Positions 12,208 to 43,137 of a DNA stretch of 64,000 nt are shown here, piece by piece. The DNA lies in contig JBGSXW010000002.1 of NCBI GenBank assembly GCA_041751215.1, positions 3,123-67,122 on the forward strand. The letters run 5' to 3'. The translations under genes and the position numbers were made by a program. The notes below the pieces were generated by a model. That model did not search any database. It saw only the letters and a program-made list of their open reading frames with translations, and was not told where the DNA came from. This DNA is from Candidatus Saccharimonadales bacterium (GTDB lineage Bacteria; Patescibacteriota; Saccharimonadia; Saccharimonadales; JBGSXW01). Each line of letters begins with the position of its first letter. The first letter of the stretch is position 1.

Positions 12208-12661
12208 AACGTACCTTTGAGGCTGGATTATTTATGATATCCAGTGCTCGTACCGTATCGGCAATGCCAAGCTGCTGTAGAGTTGTTTCTCGCGCAGTAT
12301 TTGTAGCCTCCTGAGGTTCGTTTTCTTCAATAATTGTGTCGCGATATTGTTCACGACTTTTCAGTGTGTTCTTGTTAAAAACGTACAAGCTTGGCCGTAA
12401 ATTGTAGCGCAACACTATGACCAACCAGAGTAGTAAGATAGTGCCCTTAATACGGATCGCCATTGTCCAGAAAATAAAAGCAAGCACACCAATCAACACC
12501 ATTTTATAGGCAGCGTTGTTCATAAAGGGTGGCAAGACCACATACAGGAGACCTCCTGCAAAAACGGGCGTAGCAAGTAACAAAAGCTGAGAAAAGCCTA
12601 AGTTACCGGCAATACGGTCTTCAACAGTTGTAACTTGTGCGGGGACAACAGTGGCTTTCAT
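12146..12661 (-). CDS. PrgI/VirB3-like small membrane protein
   Basis: 171 aa. The N-terminal EDRIAGNLGFSQLLLL is followed by hydrophobic helices, and the gene sits immediately upstream of VirB4 as in Gram-positive T4SS. Confidence 0.55.
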   Translation of the reverse strand: MKATVVPAQVTTVEDRIAGNLGFSQLLLLATPVFAGGLLYVVLPPFMNNAAYKMVLIGVLAFIFWTMAIRIKGTILLLWLVIVLRYNLRPSLYVFNKNTLKSREQYRDTIIEENEPQEATNTARETTLQQLGIADTVRALDIINNPASKVRFETNRKGKLYVRFTEIKEES

Positions 12662-14131
12662 CTACTTTTTCTCCATAATTTTAGGTGGCTTAAGTTCTTC
12701 TTTGTTTAAGCGGGGGGCCTCGCTGGTAGTACCAGTCGGTGGGCGCTTGTCCAGATTTTGTTTTTGAGTTGCACGATTATTTGTATTACCGCTTATTGGC
12801 TGTTTATAATTTGCGCTTGTCGTTCTCTTACTGCTTGATGAACTGCTTGTACTCTTGCTACTGACGGCGTTTTTACGGCTACTGACTTTACTGGTCGTCG
12901 CGTTGGTAACGGCACGGCCCTTACTACCAAGATAGCTAATGCCAGTCATGAATTGGCTGCCAAGTTTACGTGCAGTTCGTGGTCCGATGCTGGCATATGA
13001 GAACTGCATCATTACGCCCTGAGTTTTGAGGAGCGCGATAATTGTTGCCAGCCCTGCTATCATGGCCATGAGAGGGTTTAATGTCTCACCAGGTGTTGCG
13101 ACAACCATGCCAGCAAACAGTGAGGCAGCAAGCAGCAGAATAATCACATGGATAAAGAGTACAAAAATGGTGGCAATATATGCTTTGATGGCAGTTACGG
13201 AAAAGTCTCGAAAGCCTGGAATTAACCATATCAATATGACAATTGGTGAAAGTACCGCTCCGATAAACAGTGTGACCAATCGCCCAACATAGTAAACCAG
13301 GAGTATCACAGCAAAAATTAGGAACACCAGCATCATGAGCAGACCAGCCACACCCTGTCCGCCAGAGCCCTCGACAACTTTAGTTAAAACTTCCCAGACT
13401 GTACCGGGTGCGCCAGCGGCATTGATAGCTCGAATCAACGCGTTAGAGAGTCCAATAATGCCATCGATGATGAAAATTGAGGTATTGAGGAGCATAAATA
13501 CTAAAGCAATCCGTGGCAATAAGTGTTTAAACTCGATTTCGTCAAAGCCAAACGTCGAAGCACTCATAATGTGGAAGCCCAACAGAACAATAACTAGCAC
13601 AAAGAGCGCATCAGCAATCCCCACCATCGCTAGCCATAGATTAAATACAGTCGAGTTATCGGCCATAAGTGGCGTTGCTTTGGTAAAGAAAGACAGAGCA
13701 GCCAGAAATGGCGTGGCTACGGTTTGAATTATATTATTAAGCAATCCGGTTACGGCCTTAATGAGAATATCTACCAGCCCATTTGAAGCAGGTTGTGGTT
13801 GAATTTGCGTAAGCTGTGGCAAACTTGAACTGGGCGTAACGGCGGAACTGGTATAAGCATGGGTTAACACTTCAGTAATAACAGTGGCAGCCAGAATAAT
13901 GATAAGCCCGAGTAGTGCATTGCGGATTACGCGTTTGGCATGGTCAAGATTCTCTGGTTTACCAGCACTAGTCATGTAATTAATACCACCGCTTACGAGA
14001 AAGAAAACACAGGCTAATGAGGCAAGCGCACTAAGCGTGCGAACAAGCGGGCCGATATACGATTGCATGACAGAGCCTGCCGCTGATGCGTCGGCTACAA
14101 GTGAAAGATTCGTAGTTAAAAGCTCGATCAT
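12662..14131 (-). CDS. VirB6/TrbL-like polytopic membrane protein with N-terminal pilin-like module
   Basis: 489 aa with many hydrophobic helices and a Ser-rich C-terminal tail. The N-terminal SGGINYMTSAGKPENLDHAKRVIRNALLGLII parallels the neighbouring pilin-like protein. Confidence 0.6.
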   Translation of the reverse strand: MIELLTTNLSLVADASAAGSVMQSYIGPLVRTLSALASLACVFFLVSGGINYMTSAGKPENLDHAKRVIRNALLGLIIILAATVITEVLTHAYTSSAVTPSSSLPQLTQIQPQPASNGLVDILIKAVTGLLNNIIQTVATPFLAALSFFTKATPLMADNSTVFNLWLAMVGIADALFVLVIVLLGFHIMSASTFGFDEIEFKHLLPRIALVFMLLNTSIFIIDGIIGLSNALIRAINAAGAPGTVWEVLTKVVEGSGGQGVAGLLMMLVFLIFAVILLVYYVGRLVTLFIGAVLSPIVILIWLIPGFRDFSVTAIKAYIATIFVLFIHVIILLLAASLFAGMVVATPGETLNPLMAMIAGLATIIALLKTQGVMMQFSYASIGPRTARKLGSQFMTGISYLGSKGRAVTNATTSKVSSRKNAVSSKSTSSSSSSKRTTSANYKQPISGNTNNRATQKQNLDKRPPTGTTSEAPRLNKEELKPPKIMEKK

Positions 14132-17324: not shown

Positions 17325-18324
17325 AGTTCACTACCAATCCCAGGCAGGCACTAACTAAGAAAGTTACCAATATCACTGTACGTATGACGCGCTTGGTATA
17401 TGTAGTTCGCATGAGACTTATCATCTTGATATCAACAATTGGACCGAACACCAAGAAGCTGACTAATGAACCAGTTGTAAAGGTATTAGCAAAAGCCAGT
17501 GCAAAGAACGCATCTACGTTAGCACAAATTGACACGATAAATGCCAGCATCATCATAGCGAATATCGACCAGATCGGATCACCACCAAGGCTAATAAGAA
17601 TACTGCGTGGCACCATAACTTGCACAAATCCTGCTACAAAACCTCCAATAAAGAGCGCTGGCACAATAACATTGGCTTCACTGGCAAATATCTGAAAGCT
17701 TTGTTTGACCTTGTTGTGCTGATGCTTGGTTTTACGGTGATCTACTTTACAGGTAGCGGCGAACTCAGGCGTTAGTAACGCTTGCTGCTTTTGTTTGCCT
17801 GCAAAAAACCAACCAACGATATTGGCAATAGCAAACCCGCCCAACAGGCGCGCAATCAGAATTGTACTATCCGAACCAAACGCTTGTTGGGTGGTTATGA
17901 TTGTAATCGGATTAAGAATTGGTGCTGCCAGTAGAAACGTCAGCGACTCACTTACGGTTAGGCCTTTAACCATCAAGCCACGCGCAAGTGGTATATTACC
18001 GCACTCACAGACCGGTAAAAAGATACCCAAGAATGATAAGGCAATTCTGCGTGGTGTGGGACGTTTTGGTAGAAGTCTTAAGAGTAAATTTTCTGGTAAC
18101 CAGACTTGTACCAATATGGAAAGCGCAATACCAAGCAGTACAAATGGCAAGGCTTCGATTATGATGCTTGAGGAGAGCGTAATAAAGTCCTGTATCTTTG
18201 TTGGTACGGTAATCGCGGTATACCGATTCGAGAGAACTTTTAAGAGCAATAAAAGGCCGACCAGAGCCAGTCCCATCGCAGGGAAGCGTAGTCGGTTTGA
18301 TTGTTGTACGTGAACTAATGCCAC
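17314..18324 (-). CDS. permease, DUF318/ArsP_1 (YraQ-like) family
   Basis: 336 aa, polytopic, with the family signature PVCECGNIPLARGL. Confidence 0.75.
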   Translation of the reverse strand: MALVHVQQSNRLRFPAMGLALVGLLLLLKVLSNRYTAITVPTKIQDFITLSSSIIIEALPFVLLGIALSILVQVWLPENLLLRLLPKRPTPRRIALSFLGIFLPVCECGNIPLARGLMVKGLTVSESLTFLLAAPILNPITIITTQQAFGSDSTILIARLLGGFAIANIVGWFFAGKQKQQALLTPEFAATCKVDHRKTKHQHNKVKQSFQIFASEANVIVPALFIGGFVAGFVQVMVPRSILISLGGDPIWSIFAMMMLAFIVSICANVDAFFALAFANTFTTGSLVSFLVFGPIVDIKMISLMRTTYTKRVIRTVILVTFLVSACLGLVVNYAF

Positions 18325-18387
18325 AATGGCTTATATTTTACAAGTATCTGGTGAGGACAGGAAAATAGTTGCGAAATTAGTTATTTC

Positions 18388-18402
18388 TGCAACTAATTTG
18401 CA
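18388..18402. promoter_or_regulatory. Fur/Zur-box-like palindrome
   Basis: tgcaactaatttgca is the exact reverse complement of the 21192 box. It lies in the divergent intergenic between the permease operon (start 18324) and the His-rich ORF (start 18458). Confidence 0.55.
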
Positions 18403-18457
18403 TTTACGAGAAGTTATAGCATACAATCTGTCTGTTAATTCTAAGGTGAAAGACATA

Positions 18458-18826
18458 ATGATACGAACAGATGGTGATATTCAGCACGGACTAGCTCATT
18501 TAATGATTGGTGAGGCTTTTATTGCTAATACGATTGAAAACGATCGCTTTTCGGCTGCACAGCTTGATCAGTTCTTTGGAACCTTTCGAGAAAGTCATAG
18601 AGGCGCGCTTGGTCAGTTTACGACGCGTGCTGCCGAGATAGTTGGTTATGATGAACATCATGAGCTAGACGACTTCGGCCCACACGGTAAGTTTGCAGGC
18701 AAATTATCTCTACGAGAGTCTGGCTTAGCCGTTGTTGAAACTGAACTTCATCATGCCGCCCCAGCAGGGCTTAACGAGGCTTTAAAAGCTTCTTGCGCGA
18801 CTGCCGTAGCCGTACTACGCGGCTAA
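18458..18826 (+). CDS. His-rich hypothetical protein
   Basis: Start taken at Met45 of track ORF 18326..18826, preceded by aaggtgaaag. Scattered His clusters (DIQHGLAH, DEHHELDDFGPHG, ELHH). Confidence 0.45.
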   Translation: MIRTDGDIQHGLAHLMIGEAFIANTIENDRFSAAQLDQFFGTFRESHRGALGQFTTRAAEIVGYDEHHELDDFGPHGKFAGKLSLRESGLAVVETELHHAAPAGLNEALKASCATAVAVLRG

Positions 18827-20503
18827 GGCTAGTGGTTGACGATTGCGAGTTAAAACTAAGAGTATGATCTCGCCAAGCACCTGGGCCATACTCATAGTTT
18901 TATTTGTGGATTGAGTGGATGAGAATTGAGAAAATTCGAAACTGTACTCAATACTGAGGTCTTTTCTGAGTCCATGCAAGATATCGTATGCTTCTTGGTC
19001 AAAGATTAGTTCTTGATCGTCTGAAAATTCCAGCATCTGTGCTAAATCCTCGTAAGTAAGAGAAAGTTTAGCGGCAAGTTCTTCAAGTTTTTCTTTGAGT
19101 GTGGGCGATAAGACTGCTAGCTCATGGGATTCCGTGGTGCCTACTCCCTTAATTAGTTCAAAGATGTCTTCAATGATTTCTTGTACCTCTGGTGCATCCT
19201 CTGGCTCAACAGCAGATATTAATTCCGCAACCACAGCTTGCTGAGCGGGCTTTAACTCTCGTTCTGGAATGACGTTTTGTTCAGTACTCGAAGTCCTGTC
19301 TGGCACTGTGAAAAGCTCTTGTGCGGGTTCTTCAACTTCACTTATTGTGAGATTGTTGGTTGCTCCGGCATCAACAGCTATATCCCACAAGCTTATCTCG
19401 TCATTTTCTGACAGAGCGATAGGTAGCTCGCCAGCTTCAAAGGTAAGATCTTCAACTTCACTTGATTCTTCAACCATAGTTTCGCTGGTCGTGAGAACTT
19501 CTTGCGTGAGCAAGTCAATGTTATCGACATCATTGCTATCAGCCTGTTCAATATCAACAGGTTCCATATCCTCTGATACTGACAGTGTATTAAATTCTAC
19601 GCTGCCCTCGGTTTTTTCCTCACCATCACCATCAGTAATCTCTGCTTGATTGGTTTCGATAGTACTTTTCTGTATTGGTTCCACGGCTTCGATAGCGTCT
19701 GTTTTGCTCCTTTCAACTGGTTTGTTAACCGCAGGTACTTTGGCTTCTTCCCGATTAACCTGTTCCGTTCGTTCGGCTATATTTTGTTTTTCCTTTTCGG
19801 GCATTGATTTGGTGTTACTCTCAACGACTGCTTGAGAGGCCTCGGTAGCATCAATACGTTGCCGTAGGGCTGCATCCATTTCGGGTTTAACGATGGTTGC
19901 TTGTTTGGCGATCTCTACTTCTACCGCAAGGCGTTGTTGGGCTTCTGTAGCATCTACAATCTGTTCTGCGATGGTTTCTGCCGCCGTTTTTTGTTCCTGG
20001 TGAGGTGCTTTTTCTAAATTATCAAATAAAGAATCGGCGTGTTTATCAGCTTGCGGCTGATTATGTTCGCAGTGTGCATCACAGACATGCGGTTTATGTG
20101 CTTCGTGCTGGTGATCGTCAAGTTCTTTTGCTGCTCTGTTGGCGGTTTCTTTATCGGCTGCTATCTTGGCTGGCTCAACTTTTGGTTTGGTTGTCTCGGC
20201 TTCAGGTTTACTGAGATCATTAAAGAGACTGTCAGACATCTCATCTGCTTTAGACTGATGGTGCTCGCAGTTAGGGCCGCAAACATGATCTTTTTCTAGG
20301 TCTGCAAAAAGATCATCACTCATTTCATTGGCTTGCATCTGCGAGTGCTCACAGTCTGGGGTGCAGACGTGTCCTTCAACCCCGTGTGCAGTTTCTAGGT
20401 GGGGGTGATGTTGCGTAGTCTCTGCTTGCTGTTCAACATGAGCCACAGCCTCATGAGCTTCGTGCTGATGGGCTTGCGCTAGAACTTCAGCATTTGCAGG
20501 CAT
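18815..20503 (-). CDS. acidic, His/Cys-repeat putative metal-binding protein
   Basis: 562 aa with a His-rich N-terminus and three repeats of HVCxxxCEHxQxxA(D/N)(E/K)xxDxLFxxL. It has a very acidic middle and a hydrophobic C-terminal segment. Confidence 0.6.
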   Translation of the reverse strand: MPANAEVLAQAHQHEAHEAVAHVEQQAETTQHHPHLETAHGVEGHVCTPDCEHSQMQANEMSDDLFADLEKDHVCGPNCEHHQSKADEMSDSLFNDLSKPEAETTKPKVEPAKIAADKETANRAAKELDDHQHEAHKPHVCDAHCEHNQPQADKHADSLFDNLEKAPHQEQKTAAETIAEQIVDATEAQQRLAVEVEIAKQATIVKPEMDAALRQRIDATEASQAVVESNTKSMPEKEKQNIAERTEQVNREEAKVPAVNKPVERSKTDAIEAVEPIQKSTIETNQAEITDGDGEEKTEGSVEFNTLSVSEDMEPVDIEQADSNDVDNIDLLTQEVLTTSETMVEESSEVEDLTFEAGELPIALSENDEISLWDIAVDAGATNNLTISEVEEPAQELFTVPDRTSSTEQNVIPERELKPAQQAVVAELISAVEPEDAPEVQEIIEDIFELIKGVGTTESHELAVLSPTLKEKLEELAAKLSLTYEDLAQMLEFSDDQELIFDQEAYDILHGLRKDLSIEYSFEFSQFSSTQSTNKTMSMAQVLGEIILLVLTRNRQPLALAA

Positions 20504-21157
20504 TTAGGCAGTAACTTTCTTTTGAGTGGTTAAGAATTCGTTAATATTTAGGCCGACACGGCTTTGTGCTAATAGCTTGATCCGTTCCATCTCACTATCC
20601 TCAACCTCTTTGATAAAGAAACTAAAGAATTGTTTCTTTGAGACAAAATAGGTGGTTATTAGTAAGCGTTGGTATGGTAATACCTCCACGCCAGACTGCT
20701 TGCGTGTCCAGTGCTCAATCTTTGGGGTATGGTCGAACAGTAGCGGGATATTCTTAGAAAAGACTTGCTTACCATCACGTTCTAGCCAGTGAGTGTAAAA
20801 GTTCTCCCAGGTGTCGTATTCAGCAAAAGCATGTGTTTCATCTGGCGTAAAGTTACCAAACCGGTTGCCAAGCTCTTGATTATATCGATCACGAGAAAAT
20901 GCCAAAAATTGCTCCACAGTTGTATCAGGTACATGCTTTACGAGATATTCCTTTATTTCCTTTTTAAAAGGATTAGCAAGCGTTATGGTAAAAGGCTGGA
21001 ACCCAAGCTCATCTGTGCCATTACGGCGCTGCTCAGCGTACTCAGCGTCGCCGACATGCAAAAAACTAACCACCTGCCAATCATGGAATCCGTCCTTGTT
21101 TGGCTTCTCGGTTGCAAAATCGTTCCAAAATAACTGAAATGAATCAAATACTATCAT
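20504..21157 (-). CDS. hypothetical protein (first gene of the operon divergent from the Fur-family gene)
   Basis: 217-aa ORF with no recognised motif. Its stop abuts the start of the 562-aa ORF. Confidence 0.55.
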   Translation of the reverse strand: MIVFDSFQLFWNDFATEKPNKDGFHDWQVVSFLHVGDAEYAEQRRNGTDELGFQPFTITLANPFKKEIKEYLVKHVPDTTVEQFLAFSRDRYNQELGNRFGNFTPDETHAFAEYDTWENFYTHWLERDGKQVFSKNIPLLFDHTPKIEHWTRKQSGVEVLPYQRLLITTYFVSKKQFFSFFIKEVEDSEMERIKLLAQSRVGLNINEFLTTQKKVTA

Positions 21158-21191
21158 ATCTAGTACATTCTAAGAGGTAGTGACTACTTAT

Positions 21192-21206
21192 TGCAAATTA
21201 GTTGCA
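21192..21206. promoter_or_regulatory. Fur/Zur-box-like palindrome
   Basis: TGCAAATTAGTTGCA (arms TGCAA/TTGCA), about 20 nt upstream of the Fur-family ATG in a divergent intergenic region. Confidence 0.55.
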
Positions 21207-21226
21207 TTTTTGATATTATTTGCATC

Positions 21227-21703
21227 ATGGATCAGATTGATAGATTAAAATCTCTACTAACCGAACGCGGGTACAGTATTACTAAGCCTCGCTTAGAGGT
21301 CTTCCGTGTCTTAGCAGCGAATGAGGAGCCACTGAATGTAACTGATATTGTGGCTCGTCTCTCTACTAAGGTAGATAAGGTAAGTATTTACCGCACGATT
21401 GAGCTGTACGAAAAGATTGGCATTGTGCACCGCGTATGGACCGGGTTTAAGAGTAAGGTTGAGCTGAGTGAAGCATTTTCACCTCACCACCATCACTTCA
21501 CATGTATTAAATGTGGAAAAACAACCGGATTGCGAAGTGAGGCACTAGAGAAAGAACTAGAGAATCTTGAGAGTGATCAACACTTTAAGCTGACACACCA
21601 CTCAATTGAACTAAAGGGCTTTTGTGAAGATTGTATAAGGCAAGTTAACATAACTCACGAAAAAGGGAGGGTTGCCCATGCCAGCGGTGTACAAGCCACG
21701 TAA
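21227..21703 (+). CDS. Fur-family metalloregulator (probably Zur)
   Basis: Start taken at Met13 (MDQIDRLKSLL). Winged-helix N-terminus, then HHHFTCIKCGK and GFCEDC metal-site motifs. Confidence 0.85.
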   Translation: MDQIDRLKSLLTERGYSITKPRLEVFRVLAANEEPLNVTDIVARLSTKVDKVSIYRTIELYEKIGIVHRVWTGFKSKVELSEAFSPHHHHFTCIKCGKTTGLRSEALEKELENLESDQHFKLTHHSIELKGFCEDCIRQVNITHEKGRVAHASGVQAT

Positions 21704-21848
21704 ACGAGTAGATCGAGAGGTTTTACAGACGACTGCAAACTCGTCTCAATCAGATGATGTACAGCAGCCAAGAGATAAATCTATAAAAGTACTCGTAGTT
21801 TCCCTGCTTGTGCTTATTGCAGTATTAATTTATCTTATCGCCCAATAA
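21678..21848 (+). CDS. possible small tail-anchored membrane protein
   Basis: 56-codon ORF below the track threshold, with RBS gggagg 7 nt upstream of the ATG. It ends with the hydrophobic VLVVSLLVLIAVLIYLIA and overlaps the fur-family 3' end. Confidence 0.35.
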   Translation: MPAVYKPRKRVDREVLQTTANSSQSDDVQQPRDKSIKVLVVSLLVLIAVLIYLIAQ

Positions 21849-21858
21849 CTAACGAGAT

Positions 21859-22086
21859 TTAGCTGTTCTTGAGTGATGCTTTATATTTTTCTAAAAAGTC
21901 GTCGTAATTGAGGTCGCCAACTTTCTCGGCGTGGAATGCGAAGCGTTCCATGAATTTCAAGAAGCCTACGGCGTAGTTGCGGTTGGCGTTGTTTGAATCG
22001 TGGTACTTCAAATAGTTGATAGTCTTTTCGATTACTTCTTCATCTTCATGAAGGTTACGATCTTTGAATACATCTGCGTCGCTCAT
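21859..22086 (-). CDS. hypothetical small protein downstream of the PLD nuclease
   Basis: 75-aa ORF starting 1 nt after the PLD-like gene stop. Confidence 0.5.
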   Translation of the reverse strand: MSDADVFKDRNLHEDEEVIEKTINYLKYHDSNNANRNYAVGFLKFMERFAFHAEKVGDLNYDDFLEKYKASLKNS

Positions 22087-22087
22087 A

Positions 22088-22552
22088 TCAACTCACTTTC
22101 GTTAGATATCGACTTAGTCCAATAAACTTTATGAGTGTTTCAGCCTCAACGGCCGATACCGTTCGCCTCATTATCTCACAACTATCATAGTACGAAAGAA
22201 TGTTCAGGCTTCCTTCGTAAAATACGGTACGGTCAATGATGGCGATTTTTCGGTGGTGTTTAACGGTAAACAGTACATTTACACCAAGTTCTTGTAATAG
22301 GCCTACTGCACATTCAGCTTGTAGCCTGTATTCTTGGTCATGTTCCTCTGGGTTACGAGTATTGATAACAATCTTTACCCCACGTTGTCGTAGTTTTGTA
22401 ATTAAGGGTACGAGTTGATTTACTCGATTGAACCGAATGAAAGGGCTTTCAATAATCAGGCTGCTGTGCGCCCGCTTAATATCTTTCATGAACTGTTGGT
22501 CAAAGGTCTCTTGATCAAACAGACTTGATGCTACATTTCTACGACCGAACAT
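22088..22552 (-). CDS. phospholipase-D-superfamily (Nuc-like) nuclease, single HKD domain
   Basis: 154 aa. HHRKIAIIDRTVFYEGSLN matches HxK(x)4D...GSxN. Confidence 0.75.
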   Translation of the reverse strand: MFGRRNVASSLFDQETFDQQFMKDIKRAHSSLIIESPFIRFNRVNQLVPLITKLRQRGVKIVINTRNPEEHDQEYRLQAECAVGLLQELGVNVLFTVKHHRKIAIIDRTVFYEGSLNILSYYDSCEIMRRTVSAVEAETLIKFIGLSRYLTKVS

Positions 22553-22688
22553 TTCTTAGCTCCAAATCGGGCAGATATACTTCACCGTCTTTGATGACCA
22601 TGCCTAATGCTTTAAAATTATCTCTGAGCTTAAAAAGATCGTCGAAAAGCGGTTCTAAATTAATACTAGTGAGCTCACCAAAGTAAGC

Positions 22689-22875
22689 CACCCACCTTGC
22701 GTGGGTGTTTTACTTTGGTACGCTCTGCGAGCGTAGAATTCGTAGGGTTCGATAACAACGAGCACGCACAGGAACTACCTCCTAGTTCCGAGCATGCGAG
22801 GAGGTTATACTTCGAGTACTCCCGTAGGGATCACCAATCTAAGGACGCCAGCTTGCTGGTGTTTTTAGATTGGTG
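22689..22875 (+). other. structured intergenic region with two terminator-like hairpins on the + strand
   Basis: cacccac-cttgc-gtgggtg+TTTT (22689-22711). Mutually exclusive hairpins ggaacta..tagttcc and cctcc..ggagg. Nested hairpin caccaatctaa...ttagattggtg (22832-22875) encloses gccag-cttg-ctggt+TTTTT (22847-22866). No + strand gene is nearby. Confidence 0.3.
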
Positions 22876-22890
22876 ACTTTGTGTACGAAT

Positions 22891-23811
22891 CTAGCCTTCT
22901 GGCGCCAAAAACCCGCCAATCGGCATGAACTGAGCTGACCATTCTCTCACCCTGTCGATGTCGTTTTCATCTGGGAGCCCCAGCTTAAGCCCGGCCGTAG
23001 TCCAATATGTGGTATGAGGAAAGCCGAAGTAAAGTTCTTTGGCGGTGTAGTTCGTGAGCGTAAAGTCTGTCCTGTCGGTTACTAAGTCTCCATTTGAGTC
23101 GCGCCAGTTTATTTCCATGAAAGAGTTAGAGCCATCAACTCTAGTAACGATTAGAACAGTTACGTTATCGTCCATAAATACGCCTGTTGCGGGCCACGCT
23201 GTACCCGGGGCGACTCCTGTAGTTGCGCCCCATCTTCGGGGCGTGCCCAAGACGTTGGATATAAGACTTACGGTTGTGCCAATGTAGCCTTGGTGGGCGT
23301 CCCAAGCTGAGCCATTTGTCTGTGCGGAACCATTCGGGAGCCGGCACAACATGGCGCACCAGTAAGGAGTGTCGTATCCGTTCGGGGCATTAAACCATGT
23401 ACTAGAATCTTCAGGATCTAAGTTTGGTGACAGCGTAGAGTGGGCGTCGTGTAAGCCGCCGAACTCCGGTACGTCAAGTTCTGCCAAAAAATCGTGGTAT
23501 GCCGCGGCCCGGCCGTTAAACCTTTGGGAGCCTGGCAAGTAAACTGCACCCGGAAAGGCTGTCTGGCCTACTGTATTTCCCCATGCTCCATTATCTCTTT
23601 GTACAGGCATGTTATTCGTGCCTCTGTCTAAGATTGTCTCAATCCGAGTTGCGGGATCAATGTCCCAGCCAGAGCCATCATCAGCATAGGTCGACGAATC
23701 AGCTACGTCCCAAGAGTGGGTCCAGGCCGTCAGGCTATCCCAGTTGGGCACAGCCACTAGCTGACCGTTAACTGAGAGTGACCCGCCGTTAACAAGTATG
23801 CGCTTTGGCAC
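22891..23811 (-). CDS. hypothetical protein co-transcribed with the tail-fibre-like gene
   Basis: 306 aa, Trp/Gly/Asn/Thr-rich (beta-rich, lectin-like composition). It starts 4 nt after the upstream gene. Confidence 0.5.
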   Translation of the reverse strand: MPKRILVNGGSLSVNGQLVAVPNWDSLTAWTHSWDVADSSTYADDGSGWDIDPATRIETILDRGTNNMPVQRDNGAWGNTVGQTAFPGAVYLPGSQRFNGRAAAYHDFLAELDVPEFGGLHDAHSTLSPNLDPEDSSTWFNAPNGYDTPYWCAMLCRLPNGSAQTNGSAWDAHQGYIGTTVSLISNVLGTPRRWGATTGVAPGTAWPATGVFMDDNVTVLIVTRVDGSNSFMEINWRDSNGDLVTDRTDFTLTNYTAKELYFGFPHTTYWTTAGLKLGLPDENDIDRVREWSAQFMPIGGFLAPEG

Positions 23812-23814
23812 TTT

Positions 23815-24990
23815 TTATGCCCCTGGCTCAAAATCTACTAATAATACTTCTGACACGACATCATTGTTTGAAACGGCTTCGCCGGTAGCAAACAGGCTGT
23901 TAGCGCTCGAGAGTGTAGCGGCGACTGTCGTGAAGTTTGTGAGGACTGAAGTATTGTAAAACAGTGTGCCAACACAGTCTTGAGTGGTCGCTCCGGTTCG
24001 TGTGATGCTCACCTCTGCTCGCCACGAACCAGCCACAGAAGTAGGAAGAGCTCCACTGTCAAGGATGGTCGTTGCACCAAACTTAATTCGGATTCGCTTT
24101 GCGTTGGCGTTGTTTGCGAATGTGCCCTGAAAACGACCCCGAACAGTGTCCCCGTTAGTAGCTAACGTGTTTGCTATAACAGAGAAGGTTTGCAGGTTAT
24201 CTTCGCCGCCACCGACATTGCCAACCGCAGTAACGCTATGTCCGATACGGCCAGGGAGACTGGCGTAAGACCCCAAAATGTAGATGTTAGCCATAACGCC
24301 CGCCCTTAGTCTGCCAATGAACGCGTCGGGTGCGGTCGTGCCAGCGCCAAATCCTATAAAGCCAACCGAGCCAAATGCACTGGCGATTGCTATTGAGGGA
24401 TGAGCGTCGGTACTGTTTTTATACAAAGTCAGACGTATGTCGTCAGCAACCCCACCATTAAAGCTCTCGATAGCCACTCTTCGCCCTCCGCTGTTAGTGA
24501 ACGTTTGGCTGGTTGTTCCAAAAGCTTTTTTAGCGGCACCAGACACGGCAATGACATCATCAGAATCCATAAGCACGGCATTGCCATCCTCAACACCCAC
24601 AATAGTGTCGGTCGTGTCAGGGTTAGTTGCTGCTGGCAGGTCGGCAATTTCCGTTGCGTCGTCTAATACGGCATCGATGTCAGCTTGTGTCGCCAGGTCG
24701 CTGGTGTCAGCAATACCGTGCACATCGTTCGTTGTATTGCTGTGAGTGGTTAAGTTGCTAGCGACGGTCGCTGCTGCTCCAGCCGAGTCAAAGTCACCGG
24801 TATCAGCTGTTGCGGCGCTGCCTAGGCCAAGGTTATTGCGAGCCTGCGGTGCTGTAGTCGCGCCTGTTCCCCCTTTGGAAATGCCGACTCGTTTCAGCGA
24901 CCCGTCGGGGTTATGGGACGTTTTTAAAAATGCATTGAGGATCTCACCCCAGTTTCCAGTATCTCCCCCAGGCTTTGGCAGTCTTGGCAT
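23815..24990 (-). CDS. phage tail-fibre-like protein
   Basis: 391 aa. The N-terminal LPKPGGDTGNWGEILNAFL and GGTGATTAPQARNNLGLGSAA resemble N-terminal motifs of phage tail fibres; the remainder is Gly/Thr/Ala-rich. Confidence 0.55.
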   Translation of the reverse strand: MPRLPKPGGDTGNWGEILNAFLKTSHNPDGSLKRVGISKGGTGATTAPQARNNLGLGSAATADTGDFDSAGAAATVASNLTTHSNTTNDVHGIADTSDLATQADIDAVLDDATEIADLPAATNPDTTDTIVGVEDGNAVLMDSDDVIAVSGAAKKAFGTTSQTFTNSGGRRVAIESFNGGVADDIRLTLYKNSTDAHPSIAIASAFGSVGFIGFGAGTTAPDAFIGRLRAGVMANIYILGSYASLPGRIGHSVTAVGNVGGGEDNLQTFSVIANTLATNGDTVRGRFQGTFANNANAKRIRIKFGATTILDSGALPTSVAGSWRAEVSITRTGATTQDCVGTLFYNTSVLTNFTTVAATLSSANSLFATGEAVSNNDVVSEVLLVDFEPGA

Positions 24991-25118
24991 CAGAACCCTC
25001 CACAGTTCTTAGGTCTCGGCTTTAAACGCACCTCTATCACAAACCACGTCTCTTGTGGGGTAATTATATCACGGTAATAACATAAGCTTTTAGGCGAATA
25101 ATTGTCGTTAGCCGACTA

Positions 25119-25147
25119 TTGTAAAAACCCTTAAGGCATGGCATAAT
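25119..25147 (+). promoter_or_regulatory. candidate sigma70-type promoter for the small-membrane-protein cassette
   Basis: TTGTAA (25119-25124), a 17-nt spacer, then CATAAT (25142-25147), in low-GC DNA just upstream of the GC-rich genes. Confidence 0.3.
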
Positions 25148-25264
25148 ACTTGCGATTCACTTTGTGGGCAACTACAGAGGCGAAAGTAGATCTGAGGAGA
25201 CAACCTCAACCAAGATCTTTCCATCGAACGACTAAACACGTTCACTGACAGTTGGGAGTAAACA

Positions 25265-25600
25265 ATGCACTACACCCTGATGAAGCACTTCAAGATGAAG
25301 GAGGACGGTTTCGTCGACTTCGGTCACAGCGCCTCGGTCCTCTTCATGGGTTTCATGACGGTCTTCGGTCCGTGCGTGATCTTTTTGGTCGCGCTGCCCT
25401 CGTTCGCTTACGCGACTGTTGAAGGCGGTGCGTTCTGGTTCATGCTGCTCACCGCCGCTCTCTGCTTGGTGGCGTACCTCGCCGCCCTCAGCGTCTTGAA
25501 GCTGGTGATGTTCACCATCGCCTGCTACATGGCCTGCCGCGAGGAGTTCATCAAGAAGATGCTCAACGAGAGTCGTTCATCCGAACGGTTCGATTCCTGA
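25265..25600 (+). CDS. small membrane protein 1 (GC-rich cassette)
   Basis: 111 aa with RBS gggag, hydrophobic helices and strong G/C at third codon positions. Confidence 0.6.
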   Translation: MHYTLMKHFKMKEDGFVDFGHSASVLFMGFMTVFGPCVIFLVALPSFAYATVEGGAFWFMLLTAALCLVAYLAALSVLKLVMFTIACYMACREEFIKKMLNESRSSERFDS

Positions 25601-25613
25601 GATTGGAGCAGCA

Positions 25614-25892
25614 ATGTCCGAAGTCAAGCAGTCCGAAAAGTACAAGAATGCCTACAGATCGGGCGTCCGTAGCTCGCTCATCTCGGCCTCTGTTGCCCTG
25701 ATGATGCTGTACTGGGCGCTCACCCCCACCCCGAATGTCACCGAGAAGATGCAGGTCAACACGTGGCTGCTGTTCGCAGTTGTCGCGGCGGGCTTCTTTT
25801 GCACAGTCTTGCTGGCCATCGGAAACTGGATCCTCGCCGAAGTCGCCAAGATGCACGAGTCCGACAGCGAGCCTGTCAACAAGTCCAACTGA
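25614..25892 (+). CDS. small membrane protein 2 (GC-rich cassette)
   Basis: 92 aa with RBS ggag, two hydrophobic helices, an N-terminal KQSEKYKNAYRSGV and strong GC3. Confidence 0.6.
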   Translation: MSEVKQSEKYKNAYRSGVRSSLISASVALMMLYWALTPTPNVTEKMQVNTWLLFAVVAAGFFCTVLLAIGNWILAEVAKMHESDSEPVNKSN

Positions 25893-25909
25893 ACGATCGG
25901 AGCAGATCA

Positions 25910-26188
25910 GTGACAGCAAAGATCAACCCGGAGAAATACAACGACTGCAAAGATGGTGTCCTCGAGTCGCTCTTCTCGGCCTTCATTTTTGGGGGTTTTG
26001 CCGCAATCACGTTGGGACTTGCAGTTACGGGCGATGCCGAAGACTCTGGTAGCCCGCAATGGGTTCCCTGGGTGCTCTTCGGCCTGCTGACCATCGCGGT
26101 CATCTGGTTGCTGTTGCGGGCGTACTACTACCGCATCAGGATGATCGACATCAAGTCCGGCGAGGAGGCTTCAGCCACCGAGCAGTAG
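25910..26188 (+). CDS. small membrane protein 3 (GC-rich cassette)
   Basis: GTG start preceded by ggag, inside track ORF 25763..26188. The N-terminal KINPEKYNDCKDGV parallels protein 2. Two hydrophobic helices. Confidence 0.5.
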   Translation: MTAKINPEKYNDCKDGVLESLFSAFIFGGFAAITLGLAVTGDAEDSGSPQWVPWVLFGLLTIAVIWLLLRAYYYRIRMIDIKSGEEASATEQ

Positions 26189-26217
26189 CACTACGCGCAA
26201 CATCGATTGGAGGTCGA

Positions 26218-26478
26218 ATGAGTGGCCACAACTACCCGCGAACAAGTGGCGAGTACGTACGGATCGCTGCGTTGTGGAAGCTGACGGGGCGTACCTTCAC
26301 GGGGGCTGCGCTGTTCAGCTTCGTCCTGCTGATTGCCATGTGGGGCAACTTCAGTTTCGTGGCGCGGCTTATCCAGATCGTCTTGGTTCTGACATACCTC
26401 GTAGGCCTTGCTACCTGCTTGGTGCGCTACGTAGTCAACATGAACCGAGCCTTTCCCGAGGAAACGCCAAACAACTGA
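26218..26478 (+). CDS. small membrane protein 4 (GC-rich cassette)
   Basis: ATG preceded by ggagg, inside track ORF 26059..26478. Two hydrophobic helices. Confidence 0.5.
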   Translation: MSGHNYPRTSGEYVRIAALWKLTGRTFTGAALFSFVLLIAMWGNFSFVARLIQIVLVLTYLVGLATCLVRYVVNMNRAFPEETPNN

Positions 26479-26660
26479 GAGCTGGGCGGGATCGCTGCAA
26501 ATACTGGGCGATCCCGCACCACCAGCCTCACATCCAATAACTCCCAACTGTCAATTCACTTCAGAAATTGTGTAATTTCTCTGATGAGTCCCCGGCCTCC
26601 GCAACTACTGCGGCGGGCAGGCGCCAGGACGAAAAGTGAACAACATGTTACAATACATTC

Positions 26661-27401
26661 ATGAAAAGTTTGCAAGATTTAGGCTTTGAGCTTGGTGGAG
26701 ACGAGGCGCACCTTCAAAAGGTTGCCCCAGAAGACATAAACCCCGAGCGGTTTTTTGATCAGGCCGAGCCGTTACTCGAAGAATTGAGTGAATCAGTCTT
26801 AACTGAAGTCGTGCCCAACCTCGAAGACTATGAGGGGCGCTGGCACCCACTTGGTTTTATGATCTACCCATTAGGAGTGCATGAGGGCTTAGGTTCGTTG
26901 CGTCTCCATATATGGCCGGCTGGACATAGGGTTTCTATTGACGGCGGCTCGGGCATTCATGATCACGCTTGGTATCTTGCTTCGCGAGTACTCGCGGGTG
27001 TGTATTCTGACGATCGTTACGATGTTGAACTTATGCCAGATAAAGCACCAGAAGGTGATTTATCAGAACCTTTTTTTCGGGTTTTTGGGGTTACAAAAGT
27101 TCCTGGCGAACCAGACGGCCTAAGAACTGATGGCACCTACGCACGTGCGCAAGTTTTCGATCAAGTGTTGGTACCGGCGGGCTTAACTCACCGGATTGAA
27201 CCGGGCGCATTTCATCTGCCAACAATTTCTGAAGGACAGCTGGCGGCAACGTTGGTCCTAGATTCTCCAAGCTTGGGCTTTAAACCAAGCATTTTGATCA
27301 ACAGATCGTCTGAGCCCATCTTTAACCCAAGACCAGCGGTTCACGAGTCCGAAGCCCTTCAGGTAAAAGATCAGATATTATCCGACCAACAAAGCAGCTA
27401 G
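26661..27401 (+). CDS. hypothetical protein, possibly cupin-like
   Basis: 246 aa with His cluster LHIWPAGH...GIHDHAW. Its codon usage resembles the backbone rather than the flanking GC-rich DNA. Confidence 0.55.
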   Translation: MKSLQDLGFELGGDEAHLQKVAPEDINPERFFDQAEPLLEELSESVLTEVVPNLEDYEGRWHPLGFMIYPLGVHEGLGSLRLHIWPAGHRVSIDGGSGIHDHAWYLASRVLAGVYSDDRYDVELMPDKAPEGDLSEPFFRVFGVTKVPGEPDGLRTDGTYARAQVFDQVLVPAGLTHRIEPGAFHLPTISEGQLAATLVLDSPSLGFKPSILINRSSEPIFNPRPAVHESEALQVKDQILSDQQSS

Positions 27402-27588
27402 TTAATACTTAAGCTTGCTACTTGCGCGAGTTACTTAGATAATTATCCAGATTGGATGGGACCAAAGGACTTTAACAGTGCCAGGTTGGACGAGTCGCCT
27501 TTTTAATAAGAGACCGCTCCCCCGACCTGGCAAAGGGTAATTGGGAAACAAATCGCCCAGACATGGGCCAAACCGAAAGGAGAGGCCC

Positions 27589-28328
27589 GTGGCCTCACGC
27601 AATTGGATAGAGCTCAACGCAGCGGCGCAAGCTGCTGGTCGGCACGTCTGTGCTGGCATCGACCTCGACCTGAGCAAGCTGCCGGCTGGACTGGAGACTC
27701 CAGAAGGTCAGCTGTCGGCATGGTGGATCGCACCGGAGTCGACGCCATCACGATCACCCCGTACATGGGGCGGATCAAAGGGCTGCAACCGTTCCTCGAT
27801 CGGGCCGACAAGGGCGCGATCGTGCTCTGCCGGACCAGCAATGCCGGCGGTGCCGAGACGCAGGACATCCCCTGTGTGCCCCTGTTCGATCCCGACACGG
27901 AGCAGTTCTACGCGAGCGAGCGTCACTACGAGCTCGAGAACGGTCACCCGCCCACGGTGCTCATGAACGATGCGATGCGTATGCCGTACTACAAGTACAT
28001 CGCCTACCGTGTGACCAGCGCGTGGAACGCCAACGGCAACTGCGTGATGGTGGTCGGCGCGACGGTTCCGGAGGAGATGGTCGAGATCCGCAAGATCGCC
28101 GGCAACATGCCGTTGCTCATTCCGGGCATCGGCAAGCAAGGCGGCGACCTCAAGTCGGCGGTGCTCTCGGGCATCGACAGCGAGGGTCAGGGCATCATCG
28201 TGAACAACAGCTCCGCGCTGACGTTCGCGTCCGATGGGCCGGACTACGCCGATGCTGCGGCCAAGGTGGCCGAAGGAATGCACAAGGAGATCACGGAGAT
28301 CATCGCCCAGCACCTCGCTGCGGCCTGA
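27589..28328 (+). pseudogene. pyrF: orotidine-5'-phosphate decarboxylase (type 2 pyrF), apparently disrupted
   Basis: A GTG start after aaggagag gives ...HVCAGIDLDLSKLP (the N-terminal substrate-binding motif) in one frame. From ~27720 the homology continues in another frame (GVDAITITPYMG, VLCRTSNAGG, LLIPGIGKQGGD). The ~55-aa segment that should carry DxKxxD is absent. Confidence 0.55.
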
Positions 28329-28345
28329 ACGACCTAGGAGGTCAC

Positions 28346-29041
28346 ATGGGAGCAATCTACGACGCCCTGGTGGAGAATGATGGCATCCACTTGGGTGGCC
28401 ACTTCATCTACACCAGCGGCGTCCACGTCGAGCGCTACCACAACGTGCGCTGGTCGGCCTGCGACAACGACACCATGTCGATGATCGCGTCAGACATGGT
28501 CGACCCGCAGTGGGCTGGTCAAGTCGACGTCGTCTTCGGTCCAGAGACCTTGGGTCGGACTTTCGTGGATCGAGTTGGCCAGGCAGCGTCGCAACAAGGC
28601 GTTACTGGCCTGAAGGTCATGTGGTGCCAGATCGTCAAGCACGATGACGGCACTCGTGAGGTGCGCTTGCCAGACGAAGAGATGTACGGCTTCAGCCGTT
28701 ACCTCAAGCCTGGTGCCAAGGTGTGGATCATCGACGACGTGCTGTCCAAGGGCACGACTTCCCTCTTGGTCCTCAACTTCTTGCGCGCATTCGGCGTTGA
28801 AATCGTCGGTGTTTCGGCTGTGCTTCGGCTCAACCAGACGGTGACGGCGAAAGTGCTGGGTGTCCCTGCGCTGCAATTCCTCGAAGACGTCGTCGGCGTC
28901 GAGATGCTCAGCGAAGCCGAGTGCCAGGAACGCGGCATGTGCTCGCGCAACGAGCCGATCGTGCTCAAGCCCGGTCACGGATTCGAGTACCAGATCGAGC
29001 ACCCCGATTACCCCGGAGGATACGTCGATCTCGATCGATGA
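28346..29041 (+). CDS. type I phosphoribosyltransferase (orotate PRTase-like)
   Basis: ATG after ggaggtcac inside track ORF 28022..29041. PRPP-binding loop KVWIIDDVLSKGTTS, with strong GC3. Confidence 0.7.
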   Translation: MGAIYDALVENDGIHLGGHFIYTSGVHVERYHNVRWSACDNDTMSMIASDMVDPQWAGQVDVVFGPETLGRTFVDRVGQAASQQGVTGLKVMWCQIVKHDDGTREVRLPDEEMYGFSRYLKPGAKVWIIDDVLSKGTTSLLVLNFLRAFGVEIVGVSAVLRLNQTVTAKVLGVPALQFLEDVVGVEMLSEAECQERGMCSRNEPIVLKPGHGFEYQIEHPDYPGGYVDLDR

Positions 29042-29306
29042 CACCTCTTTGTCCTATCCGACCTTGCCGGTCGATACTTTTCCCTTTTGGGATTTGTGTC
29101 GGCCGGCTTTCTCTTTGGCCGCTCTTCAGCGCGAATCAACGTGGCCCAGTCGCCTGGCACAGCCAGTCGTGACGGCCACTCTGCGTCACGTGCTCTGTTG
29201 CTCGCCAGCAGTACTTTCGTGTGTACAACTGAGCTCTGCTACTCGCACCTTCCTTGTGCTTCATCACTGAAGAGACGCCCAAACTAACCGAGGGTTGGCT
29301 ACTAAT

Positions 29307-29520
29307 TGGTTTATTACTACTGCCGCCGCGTCTAGTAAAACCTCTGAACTTGTAAGGACAGAACCTGGCGTGACGAGGACTGTCCGCCAGCTGGCGGACG
29401 GACTCCGCAGTCACCCAAGTTCTGTCTGAAGCAAGTTCATGAGTGTTTTGGTAGTAGCGGGATAGTTTTGGGGCACCTTTTCTAAAAAGGCGCCACTACC
29501 CTCGCCGGGAGCGACAAGCA
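29307..29520. repeat. structured repeat, copy A (inverted relative to copy B)
   Basis: Core 29337-29516 aligns to the reverse complement of 43146-43317. It folds as a long hairpin plus two short hairpins and begins a few nt beyond the response-regulator stop. Confidence 0.7.
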
Positions 29521-29524
29521 AAGA

Positions 29525-41243: not shown

Positions 41244-41438
41244 AAATTTAGTTTAGCACCTTTGACTAAATTGCCAGAACCTTGTAAAATAAACGCGTAC
41301 TTTAACAGTTCACACCTCCTTTGAGTACGGCACTTTGTTGCCCTTTTTTGCTTCATGGCACCAATGCGCCGTACTCAAAAGCTATCGACGGGAAATTCCT
41401 GTCACTATGTAGCATACGCGGCAGAGAGAAGGTTCGTC

Positions 41439-42218
41439 ATGACGACCGACGTCACCGACGAAATGCTTGGGCGCCTGTCCAAGAAGCACCACGAGTTGTA
41501 CCGAAGGGTCAGGGAGGGCTCACTCGATCCCGAGATGGTGCTCGATGGGCTGCAGTGGCTGATCGAAGGGGGCTTCAGATCAAAGCCGAAGCCGTTCCTT
41601 TTCGAACAGTCTGACGAGCAGCTCTTCAAGGCCATGGAGTGGTGGGGGCCGCACTTCAGCGATGTGGAATGGGAGGACGCCCAGTACCAGATCCCCGACT
41701 GGCCATCCGGAGGGCTTGTGGCTCCAGTGCTGGTTCCCTACTTCAGCACCGTCCAACAGACGTTCGAGCTGTTGTGGCGCACTGTCACCGAGGTTCACCC
41801 GACTATCACTCGCCGAGAGGACTTGCTGTCGGATCCAACCCACCTGAGGCCGTACACGGACACGGCATTCAAGAGCACCGATCACCCGGTCAACACCCTG
41901 CGCTGGGAGATCATTGACTTCAAGGGTGTCGACAACGCCATGCCATGTGAAGTGCGTCATGTGGGCTCACCCCATGCTGCCATCTTGGCCGCGGCCTGCC
42001 TCCATCCTGAATGGGTAAAGGCGATAGATGGCGGTGAAGTTCCAAACGTGTGGCTGTCTGGCTATGAAGTCAGTCTTGCTGGTGGCGAGAGGTGGTCGCA
42101 TGTTCCGGTTCTCGAGCTGTCGGGTGTCGGATCCCAGCTGCGACTCAGCGCCCATTTTGCCAGTGCCACTGAGCCGGGATATGCAAATCCAATCCGACGG
42201 AGGTTGTTAGAAGATTGA
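41439..42218 (+). CDS. hypothetical protein (single-gene GC-rich cassette)
   Basis: Start taken at Met29 of track ORF 41355..42218. Strong GC3 and no recognised motif. Confidence 0.55.
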   Translation: MTTDVTDEMLGRLSKKHHELYRRVREGSLDPEMVLDGLQWLIEGGFRSKPKPFLFEQSDEQLFKAMEWWGPHFSDVEWEDAQYQIPDWPSGGLVAPVLVPYFSTVQQTFELLWRTVTEVHPTITRREDLLSDPTHLRPYTDTAFKSTDHPVNTLRWEIIDFKGVDNAMPCEVRHVGSPHAAILAAACLHPEWVKAIDGGEVPNVWLSGYEVSLAGGERWSHVPVLELSGVGSQLRLSAHFASATEPGYANPIRRRLLED

Positions 42219-42350: not shown

Positions 42351-42432
42351 CATTCTTAAGATCTATTAAGCTAAATACGTAATTCCGGTCGCCTAATTCC
42401 CTTTCTTAATGTTGTCTGCTAGAGTTGTTGTG

Positions 42433-43137
42433 ATGAACAAACGAGTGTTAATTAAAGTTTCGGGCGAGCAACTAGCCGGTAAGCAAGAGAACGGTTTAGA
42501 TCGTGACTTTATGGAATGGCTCTCTAAAGAAATAAAAAAAGTTACAAGTGCTGGTATTGAAGTAGCTATCGTCGTTGGCGGCGGAAATTATATTCGGGGG
42601 GCTGATTTTGCCGGCGATGGCATTGAAGCAGCAACCGCTCACTACATGGGTATGATGGCAACTGTTATTAACGGCATGGGCCTAACGGACGTGCTGGAGC
42701 ATAACGGCGTGCCGACTCGTTTACAGACTAGCTTTGAAGTTAAGTCGGTTGCCGAGCCATTTATTCGTCGCCGAGCACTTCGTCATCTCGATAAAGGACG
42801 CGTAGTTATTTGCGCAGCCGGAACCGGACGTCCATTTGTAACCACCGATAGTGCTTCGGTCTTGTTTGCTCTTGAGCTAGGTTGCGACGTGGTCCTAAAG
42901 GCTACAAATGTTGACGGAGTTTATGACGACGATCCGGCTAAAAACGACCAAGCTAAACGCTTCGAAAGCCTATCGTTTCAAGAGGCCATCGAAAACCCCA
43001 AGATCAAGGTTATGGACAAGGCGGCAATCGGTCTTGCAATGGAACAAAAGCTGCCAATCGTAGTGTTTGATATTCGCCAAGAAGGTAATATTCTTAAAGC
43101 CGCTCAAGGGGACGGTATAGGAACAAAGATTTCCTGA
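42433..43137 (+). CDS. pyrH: UMP kinase
   Basis: MNKRVLIKVSGEQLAG and VVGGGNYIRG. An alternative upstream ATG lies at 42409. Confidence 0.9.
   Translation: MNKRVLIKVSGEQLAGKQENGLDRDFMEWLSKEIKKVTSAGIEVAIVVGGGNYIRGADFAGDGIEAATAHYMGMMATVINGMGLTDVLEHNGVPTRLQTSFEVKSVAEPFIRRRALRHLDKGRVVICAAGTGRPFVTTDSASVLFALELGCDVVLKATNVDGVYDDDPAKNDQAKRFESLSFQEAIENPKIKVMDKAAIGLAMEQKLPIVVFDIRQEGNILKAAQGDGIGTKIS

Follow-up and report, generated by a model that had tools for sequence, protein, structure and literature searches.

A GC-rich pyrF-phosphoribosyltransferase pair, probably imported, in a Saccharimonadales genome in which pyrF has lost its catalytic core through an internal deletion

A 64-kb stretch of DNA from a Candidatus Saccharimonadales bacterium (referred to here as the window, meaning the whole stretch that was analysed) carries, at positions 27589-29041, a GC-rich block in which pyrF, a gene for a type-2 orotidine 5'-monophosphate (OMP) decarboxylase, is followed by a gene for a type I phosphoribosyltransferase (PRTase). 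We consider it probable (roughly 0.8) that the block is a foreign two-gene operon for the conversion of orotate to uridine monophosphate (UMP), in which pyrF was recently inactivated by an internal deletion and the PRTase was left intact. The original prediction, which was made from the letters of this DNA, had already described a GC-rich block of this content, and that description agrees with the matches we obtained to the NCBIfam model TIGR02127 and the Pfam family PF00156, as well as with a GC content of 0.616.

The open reading frame (ORF) listing places two overlapping forward ORFs ahead of the PRTase ORF, one in frame 1 (27541-27966) and one in frame 3 (27603-28328), and between them these hold the following parts of pyrF:

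27577-27583, plus strand: ribosome-binding sequence AAAGGAG of pyrF, just 5' of the GTG at 27589
27589-27711, plus strand: N-terminal pyrF remnant in frame 1, 41 codons with a GTG start, holding the GIDLDL strand-1 motif
27711-27717, plus strand: deletion junction from frame 1 to frame 3, given by the tblastn borders with the homologue P0008
27717-28328, plus strand: C-terminal pyrF remnant in frame 3, about 204 codons, with a TGA at 28326-28328

Protein searches with the remnant returned hundreds of intact pyrF relatives of 270-323 aa, the closest of which is P0008 (320 aa, 62% identical), whose sequence starts with MASRNWIELNAAAQAEGRHVCAGIDLKLEKLPPRLQDPAGQ and runs on through GYIKPNLAFY and VVILDAKFGDIDATN to GADAVTLHPYMGRIKGMQPFLDRADKG. 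By tblastn, residues 1-43 of P0008 correspond to frame 1 at 27589-27717 (74% identity, E 2e-15) and residues 116-320 to frame 3 at 27711-28322 (61% identity, E 2e-76). The left piece of homology thus ends at 27717 at the latest and the right piece starts at 27711 at the earliest, which puts the frame switch that had been predicted near 27720 at 27711-27717. No counterpart of P0008 residues 44-115 was found by tblastn in the 64 kb (best E 0.48), and the middle segments of P0009 and P0014 were likewise unmatched there. At the DNA level we compared the block with its nearest relative, a Logan contig (L003, run SRR27710318, GC 0.62) whose pyrF is intact (320 aa) and precedes a PRTase fragment that shares 54% identity with the window PRTase. 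Relative to this contig 223 nt are missing, equal to 74 codons plus 1 nt, a loss that accounts for the shift in reading frame. Programmed frameshifting is ruled out as an explanation of the two frames, given that some 74 codons are absent in every frame.

In an alignment of ten sequences the gap from the Gln that closes the left piece to the GxDA on the right spans 74-83 residues in the homologues and 6 in the window, and the GID-to-DAxT spacing is 28.7 codons as against 103 residues in P0008. The shortening that had been noticed in this spacing therefore stands; the reference value of 85 residues (Mycobacterium tuberculosis PyrF) has to give way to the approximately 100 seen in the true nearest relatives. 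Neither DxKxxD nor KP[NQ] was found in any forward frame of 27541-28330, and the catalytic stretch (the KPN Lys and DxKxxD) is absent from the whole window. By alignment column, K71, D119 and K121 (Lys of KPN; Asp and Lys of DxK) fall in the deletion gap. Out of 47 columns that are invariant in nine intact homologues, the remnant keeps all 39 that lie outside the deletion; the other eight (6 deleted, 2 mismatched at the junction) all lie within the missing stretch. An out-of-frame internal deletion removing the DxKxxD segment, as originally proposed, is what these comparisons show.

Profile scores tell the same story. Against TIGR02127 the frame-3 ORF scores 94.5 bits (profile positions 108-257 of 261) and the spliced remnant 98.4 bits (positions 109-257), both below the cut-off of 110.6, in contrast to intact P0008, which passes the equivalog cut-off with 159.8 bits over positions 4-260. 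The Pfam OMPdecase family (PF00215) gave no match at E<=1 for either pyrF ORF, and across tblastn, TIGR02127 and Pfam no complete catalytic core was recovered in a single frame. Descent from the type-2 OMP decarboxylase family is clear from both tblastn alignments and from the motifs retained in the C-terminal remnant (DAITITPYMG, CRTSN, VVGAT and PGIGKQGG), but the single uninterrupted frame of about 270-320 codons expected of such an enzyme is absent. By every one of these measures of membership pyrF is here a pseudogene. Translation of frame 1 from the GTG at 27589 opens with ASRNWIELNAAAQAAGRHVCAGIDLDLSKLPAGLETPEGQ, and past codon 41 continues through 84 junk residues to a stop at 27966, giving a 125-aa nonsense product. 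The annotated product is instead a 202-aa protein (P0007) from an ATG at 27720, with AGAAGGT 11 nt 5' of it. The deletion looks recent, because neither remnant is further damaged, no invariant residue has been lost outside the gap, and the N-terminal piece still shares 74% identity with P0008.

The second gene of the block comprises:

28336-28342, plus strand: the PRTase's own ribosome-binding site AGGAGGT, read from the sequence, 3 nt before the ATG
28346-29041, plus strand: type I phosphoribosyltransferase (PF00156), intact, 231 aa, resembling orotate phosphoribosyltransferase (OPRT) by AlphaFold2 and Foldseek; ATG at 28346, last base of the stop codon at 29041

Since the PRTase has its own ribosome-binding site, its translation should be independent of the pyrF reading frame. 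It is full length and keeps 11 of 11 near-invariant family residues, which upholds its earlier description as intact. The match to PF00156 (Pribosyltran) is 32.1 bits over a cut-off of 26.3, and an AlphaFold2 model built from a 105-sequence alignment has a mean predicted local confidence (pLDDT) of 96.4. When this model was compared with the Protein Data Bank (PDB) by Foldseek, the top matches were all OPRTases (those of B. anthracis, H. pylori, S. pyogenes, B. cenocepacia, yeast and human; 15-20% identity and query-based TM scores of 0.55-0.65), followed by adenine PRTases; the probability was 1.00 for many PRTases, and the type I PRTase fold with its 5-phosphoribosyl 1-pyrophosphate (PRPP)-binding motif is present. 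OPRTases likewise lead the matches when PDB chains are searched with a sequence profile (2p1z, and 5hkf from M. tuberculosis), and it is in this profile comparison that the hood SGVHVERYHNVR and R162 align with the OPRTs of M. tuberculosis and C. diphtheriae. R162, Y31 and H27 are near-invariant in the PRTase family.

The curated pyrE models are another matter. The best NCBIfam match of the PRTase, pyrE (TIGR00336), reaches 33.2 bits where the cut-off is 106.8, and pyrE_Therm (TIGR01367) reaches 28.6 bits where it is 150.25. Scores against pyrE_Therm fall stepwise, from 209 for the canonical P0006, through about 113 for two Saccharibacteria loci from metagenome-assembled genomes (MAGs) with shorter PRTases beside pyrF (L015 and L016), and about 60 for P0002, P0248 and L009, to 29 for the window PRTase. 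The catalytic flexible loop of OPRT reads RK..K.HG in E. coli; the region of the PRTase family that aligns with it has no conserved basic motif. A C-terminal extension of about 45 residues (C193..C199..PIVLKPGHGFEY..HPDYPGGY) is absent from characterised OPRTases. Family features are HF[IV]YTSGxH..Y.N.R, the PRPP motif and Cys193/Cys199, with PGHGxEY..HPDYPGGY in the closer members. His19, His27, Cys193 and Cys199 are near-invariant and possibly form a metal site; to our knowledge His19 and His27 have not been described for OPRTases.

A word-indexed search recovered only five relatives of the PRTase; an exhaustive profile search yielded 62 clusters (50% identity) with representatives at E<=1e-30, rising to 1,096 at E<=1e-10. 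Among GTDB species genomes 206 relatives were found; most belong to Saccharibacteria or other Patescibacteria, and some come from MAGs bearing the label Gammaproteobacteria or Hydrogenedentota. Of 80 genome loci with a relative of the PRTase, 58 have an OMPdecase-family gene directly adjacent on the same strand (40 upstream, 18 downstream); a further 7 are cut by contig ends and 15 have no adjoining decarboxylase. Three relatives (P0331, P0333 and P0344) are OMPdecase-PRTase fusions of 471-536 aa with the decarboxylase first, the domain order of kinetoplastid UMP synthase, so that the family is coupled to OMP decarboxylase both by operon and by fusion. The gene order of L003, with an intact pyrF, recurs in L001 and in a Saccharibacteria MAG locus (L009). 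In the latter the module (9020-10651) is a GC-rich patch (0.567 versus 0.46-0.48) among housekeeping-looking genes, with a class I aminoacyl-tRNA-synthetase-like ORF just upstream, which suggests that the pyrF-PRTase module moves between Saccharibacteria.

On account of its fold, gene context and fusions, from which we infer orotate specificity, the PRTase is most probably an OPRT-like enzyme making OMP from orotate and PRPP, and the same observations speak against its being unrelated to pyrimidine metabolism, one of the outcomes that would have overturned the original prediction. The best-surviving alternative, which we regard as unlikely, is that the pair is no UMP-synthesis module at all, and that the PRTase belongs to a distinct Patescibacteria-centred branch with another substrate or role, having perhaps been kept since it does not depend on PyrF. 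The wide misses at both pyrE equivalog cut-offs, the unconserved catalytic-loop region and such non-OPRT features as the four near-invariant His and Cys residues and the GHG..HPDYPGGY tail would fit this alternative, as would the 15 loci without a neighbouring decarboxylase and the association of some relatives with a MiaA-like gene and highly diverged OMPdecase-like proteins. Against it, the nearest relatives have a bona fide TIGR02127 PyrF as their partner; OPRTases are the best matches by structure and by sequence profile alike; the PRTase can be aligned with M. tuberculosis OPRT at the SG..Y..R hood and at the Arg of the ..R.. strand; the pyrE_Therm scores are graded (209, 112, 60 and 29 bits) from the canonical enzymes to the PRTase family; and the fusions mirror UMP synthase. 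A related proposal, that the PRTase belongs to an uncharacterised OPRT-like and mostly Patescibacteria family whose chemistry or substrate may differ from that of PyrE, that it was perhaps kept without PyrF for a use of its own, and that a new leader RNA (27418-27588) may control the operon, strikes us as rather unlikely when taken as a whole.

As a separate observation, one sub-branch of the PRTase family is paired with very divergent OMPdecase-like proteins (PF00215 30-71 bits) in L002 (129-2621), L021 and L026 (approximately 9050-12350), L011 (9178-10645) and L013 (9219-10678). In L002, L021 and L026 the pair is followed by a MiaA/IPT-like isopentenyltransferase gene, a trio that may be something other than a simple UMP-synthesis module.

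The import of the block, also part of the original prediction, is well supported by its foreign composition and by its absence from a syntenic site. GC content is 0.616 for 27541-29060 versus 0.48 for the window, and GC at third codon positions (GC3) is 0.877 in the pyrF remnant (z 5.4) and 0.772 in the PRTase (z 3.9) versus 0.480 (sd 0.074) in 53 other ORFs, a deviation such as is expected of a horizontally acquired island; the two genes of L003 have GC3 values of 0.82 and 0.79. The order PyrH-EEP-sortase-PEGA-DUF4367-GltX is conserved in L096 and L098, and the content past GltX differs. In L096 it consists of ROK, a type IV secretion system (T4SS) coupling protein and DUF3048, and no pyrF or PRTase was found within 10 kb past GltX in this one informative, and distant, relative (GltX 69% identical). 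The plasmid and viral-contig collections that were searched held no relatives of the block, and comparison of the downstream spacer (29042-29524) and the upstream island (22800-27401) with every locus fetched revealed no pseudogene remnants or homologues. The nearest recombinase (350-1759) and T4SS genes (6685-14131) lie 13-27 kb from the pyrF block, and a tRNA-Leu lies at 38859. That the block is instead native, its high GC3 arising from gene-specific codon bias, appears quite improbable to us: relatives of both genes are indeed commonest in Patescibacteria, Saccharibacteria included, and related Saccharimonadales span GC 0.47-0.55, but the pyrF remnant stands 5.4 sd above the 53 host ORFs, the best labelled Saccharibacteria PRTase is only 39% identical where the GC-0.62 contig is 54-62% identical in protein and 71-79% in DNA, and the block is absent from the syntenic site of L096.

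Logan contigs are built from k-mers present in reads. A separately assembled Logan contig (L089, run SRR28170463) is 100% identical to the window over 10.7 kb (17720-28427), junction included, and encodes the exact 202-aa product; because the identical junction occurs in this k-mer-based contig, the sample does contain the deletion allele. The contigs of this assembly end at 28427, inside the PRTase gene, and start again at about 29401, 124 nt before a response-regulator gene (L089 and L090), because of which the PRTase gene is not present there in full; an exact look-up of the PRTase (P0001) gave no match. These breaks may stem from variation among strains or from poor coverage of the block's right half. 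The view that the gene is intact in the organism and that the 223-nt gap was made by the assembler can draw on the metagenomic origin of the genome and on these nearby breaks, if they do stem from strain variation, but we hold it to be very improbable in light of the identity across the junction, of a lesion that is a 223-nt loss and no homopolymer slip, and of the fact that no direct repeats that could collapse flank the junction.

Least probable of all is that the 202-aa fragment is expressed and serves a novel function, such as partnering the PRTase. Although its frame is open, all its invariant residues are kept, AGAAGGT stands 11 nt upstream of its ATG and annotators call it as a gene, it has lost the first third of the barrel, and with it the segment that bears every catalytic residue (an OMP decarboxylase fragment of this kind would not be expected to fold), its residue retention is equally expected from a recent deletion, and no listed homologue is so truncated, entries labelled partial aside.

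The block is bounded by signals that would make it a self-contained transcription unit:

27415-27443, plus strand: promoter-like site TTGCTA-17-GATAAT, from a consensus scan only, at the start of the stretch conserved with L003
27418-27588, plus strand: operon 5' leader, conserved with L003 positions 1-180, with two hairpins
29059-29083, plus strand: terminator-like hairpin with a T-rich tail, from a consensus scan only, 18 nt past the PRTase stop

The upstream 185 nt of L003 align with the leader, which by blastn is 79% identical to L003 1-180 and approximately 90% identical over the first 120 nt, compared with 71-78% in the coding regions. One hairpin of 52 nt lies at 27480-27531 and a second covers the ribosome-binding site and start codon (folding z-score -4.0). 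Substitutions between the two leader copies, the only two available, spare the hairpin, and two one-sided changes that fall in pairs leave them paired. Against Rfam, the whole window and the leader gave only the tRNA-Leu and one noise match, with none for the leader, and nhmmer found the leader only in L003. The leader could be an undescribed cis-regulatory element. Matches of its 19-mer CCAGATTGGATGGGACCAA to five metagenome contigs were rejected as chance, being unrelated sequences with no further similarity to the window; three of the five are one and the same coding sequence, resembling that of a glycine-cleavage H protein.

The course of events that we favour for the foreign orotate-to-UMP operon is as follows. 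A self-contained unit of promoter, structured leader of about 145 nt, type-2 pyrF, OPRT-like PRTase and terminator would have come to lie in a variable region of the genome. In intact relatives the PRTase would convert orotate and PRPP to OMP, and PyrF would convert OMP to UMP, feeding the host UMP kinase PyrH. In this genome a single internal deletion of about 223 nt has taken away the part of the PyrF barrel that bears the substrate-binding Lys (KPN) and the catalytic DxKxxD, and has shifted the frame; any product from the internal ATG at 27720 would be without an active site. OMP may still be produced by the PRTase, but it would lead nowhere without a further OMP decarboxylase encoded elsewhere in the genome.

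Several points weigh against this reading. Besides the failed pyrE cut-offs, the loop without a conserved basic motif and the C-terminal extension, no convincing direct repeats, integrase or tRNA were found at the borders of the pyrF block. Given the Logan breaks, the link between the block and the right-hand host DNA is that of the MAG assembly alone; both assemblies may perhaps derive from the same reads, and an intact minor allele in the population is conceivable. Finally, to speak of half of a route being lost presumes that the genome holds no second pyrF, and a second pyrF or other pyr genes may lie beyond the 64-kb window, which is part of a contig at least 419 kb long.

As to the host, GltX is 67% identical to a protein named for Candidatus Saccharimonadales and 69% identical to many MAG proteins, and by these similarities the host is a member of the Saccharimonadales (Saccharibacteria/TM7), consistent with the reduced-genome organism that had been predicted. 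The window also encodes F-type ATP synthase, MreB and sortase, together with:

42409-43137: PyrH, UMP kinase (TIGR02075, 285.5 bits versus an equivalog cut-off of 243.9)

Since PyrH is present, the host would process UMP whatever its source. A Pfam scan of window ORFs of at least 150 aa found no pyrimidine genes besides PyrH and the pyrF-PRTase block. Published genome analyses describe Saccharibacteria as lacking complete de novo nucleotide synthesis (PMC7786006), and we found nothing specific in the literature on orotate or pyrE/pyrF in Saccharibacteria, the candidate phyla radiation (CPR) or Patescibacteria.

Elsewhere in the window, a mobile-element-like cluster occupies the minus strand at 350-14131 (GC 0.44 versus 0.49 to the right of 29 kb), with a large serine recombinase (350-1759), ParB (1761-2645), a type IV coupling protein (6685-9258), a CHAP hydrolase, a VirB4/TraC-like ATPase (9795-12207, apparently as two ORFs), a PrgI-like protein and a T4SS pilin-domain protein. 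A 198-aa ORF in this region (5693-6289) has a partial reverse-transcriptase domain (RVT_1, 34 bits) and may be a group II intron or retron remnant. Between 22800 and 27401 lies a block of GC 0.52 made up of ORFs without Pfam families, among them a 391-aa protein with weak tail-fibre-like PHROG matches, four small ORFs (86-111 aa) and, at 26661-27401, a 246-aa protein that weakly resembles a PHROG family carrying the annotation cysteine dioxygenase; judging by the step in composition near 22.8 kb, this block may have been acquired separately. On the minus strand at 57451-58047 another 198-aa ORF (GC3 0.82, no Pfam family), set in a 1-kb stretch of GC 0.576, is possibly a further imported gene, and the ORF at 41355-42218 is a milder compositional outlier (GC3 0.68).

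What is seen here is a clean but unremarkable instance of an acquired operon in decay, with the unannotated OPRT-like family and the conserved leader as mildly novel by-products. A foreign-looking orotate-to-UMP module caught just after the inactivation of one of its genes offers a small example of the gain and loss of accessory metabolism in reduced genomes. For metabolic reconstruction, the 202-aa 'OMP decarboxylase' of this MAG should not be counted as presence of the pathway, and the OPRT-like partner family, common in Patescibacteria, escapes the curated pyrE models.

Among known systems the remnant is clearly descended from type-2 PyrF (TIGR02127 and PF00215; M. tuberculosis, and the decarboxylase domain of Leishmania UMP synthase, PDB 3qw3/3qw4). 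Its best PDB sequence match is 3qw3, other PyrF structures are among its best solved relatives too, and the motifs DAxTxxPYxG, CRTSN, VVGAT and PGIGxQGG are shared; it differs by 72-77 missing residues (with the KPN Lys and DxKxxD), a split frame and a score below cut-off. Both the remnant and its nearest relatives have an insertion of about 35 residues (FDPDTEQFYASERHYELENG...) that is absent from the shortest members, such as P0083. With the short 'Thermus-type' branch of PyrE (TIGR01367) the window PRTase shares the type I fold, the PRPP motif VWIIDDVLSKGTT, the SG..Y.N.R hood and a Cys..Cys..P-V-KPG motif also seen in canonical P0006 (branch motif CxxC..P.V.KPG), and it is alike in its pyrF neighbourhood or fusion and in its top structural matches, yet it differs in its score (28.6 versus 150.25 bits), in a loop without a recognisable catalytic Lys or Arg, in the extra GHGxEY..HPDYPGGY tail and in the near-invariant His19 and His27. 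The order of pyrF followed by PRTase is also that of the kinetoplastid bifunctional UMP synthase (PDB 3qw4; NCBIfam NF004034), from which the window departs by having two separate genes with their own ribosome-binding sites and a broken decarboxylase. Finally, the block resembles the pseudogenisation of acquired genes in reduced-genome symbionts, in that a compositionally foreign operon in a variable region has one gene disabled through a deletion and the other left intact, the sole particular here being a host lineage thought to depend on scavenged nucleotides (PMC7786006).

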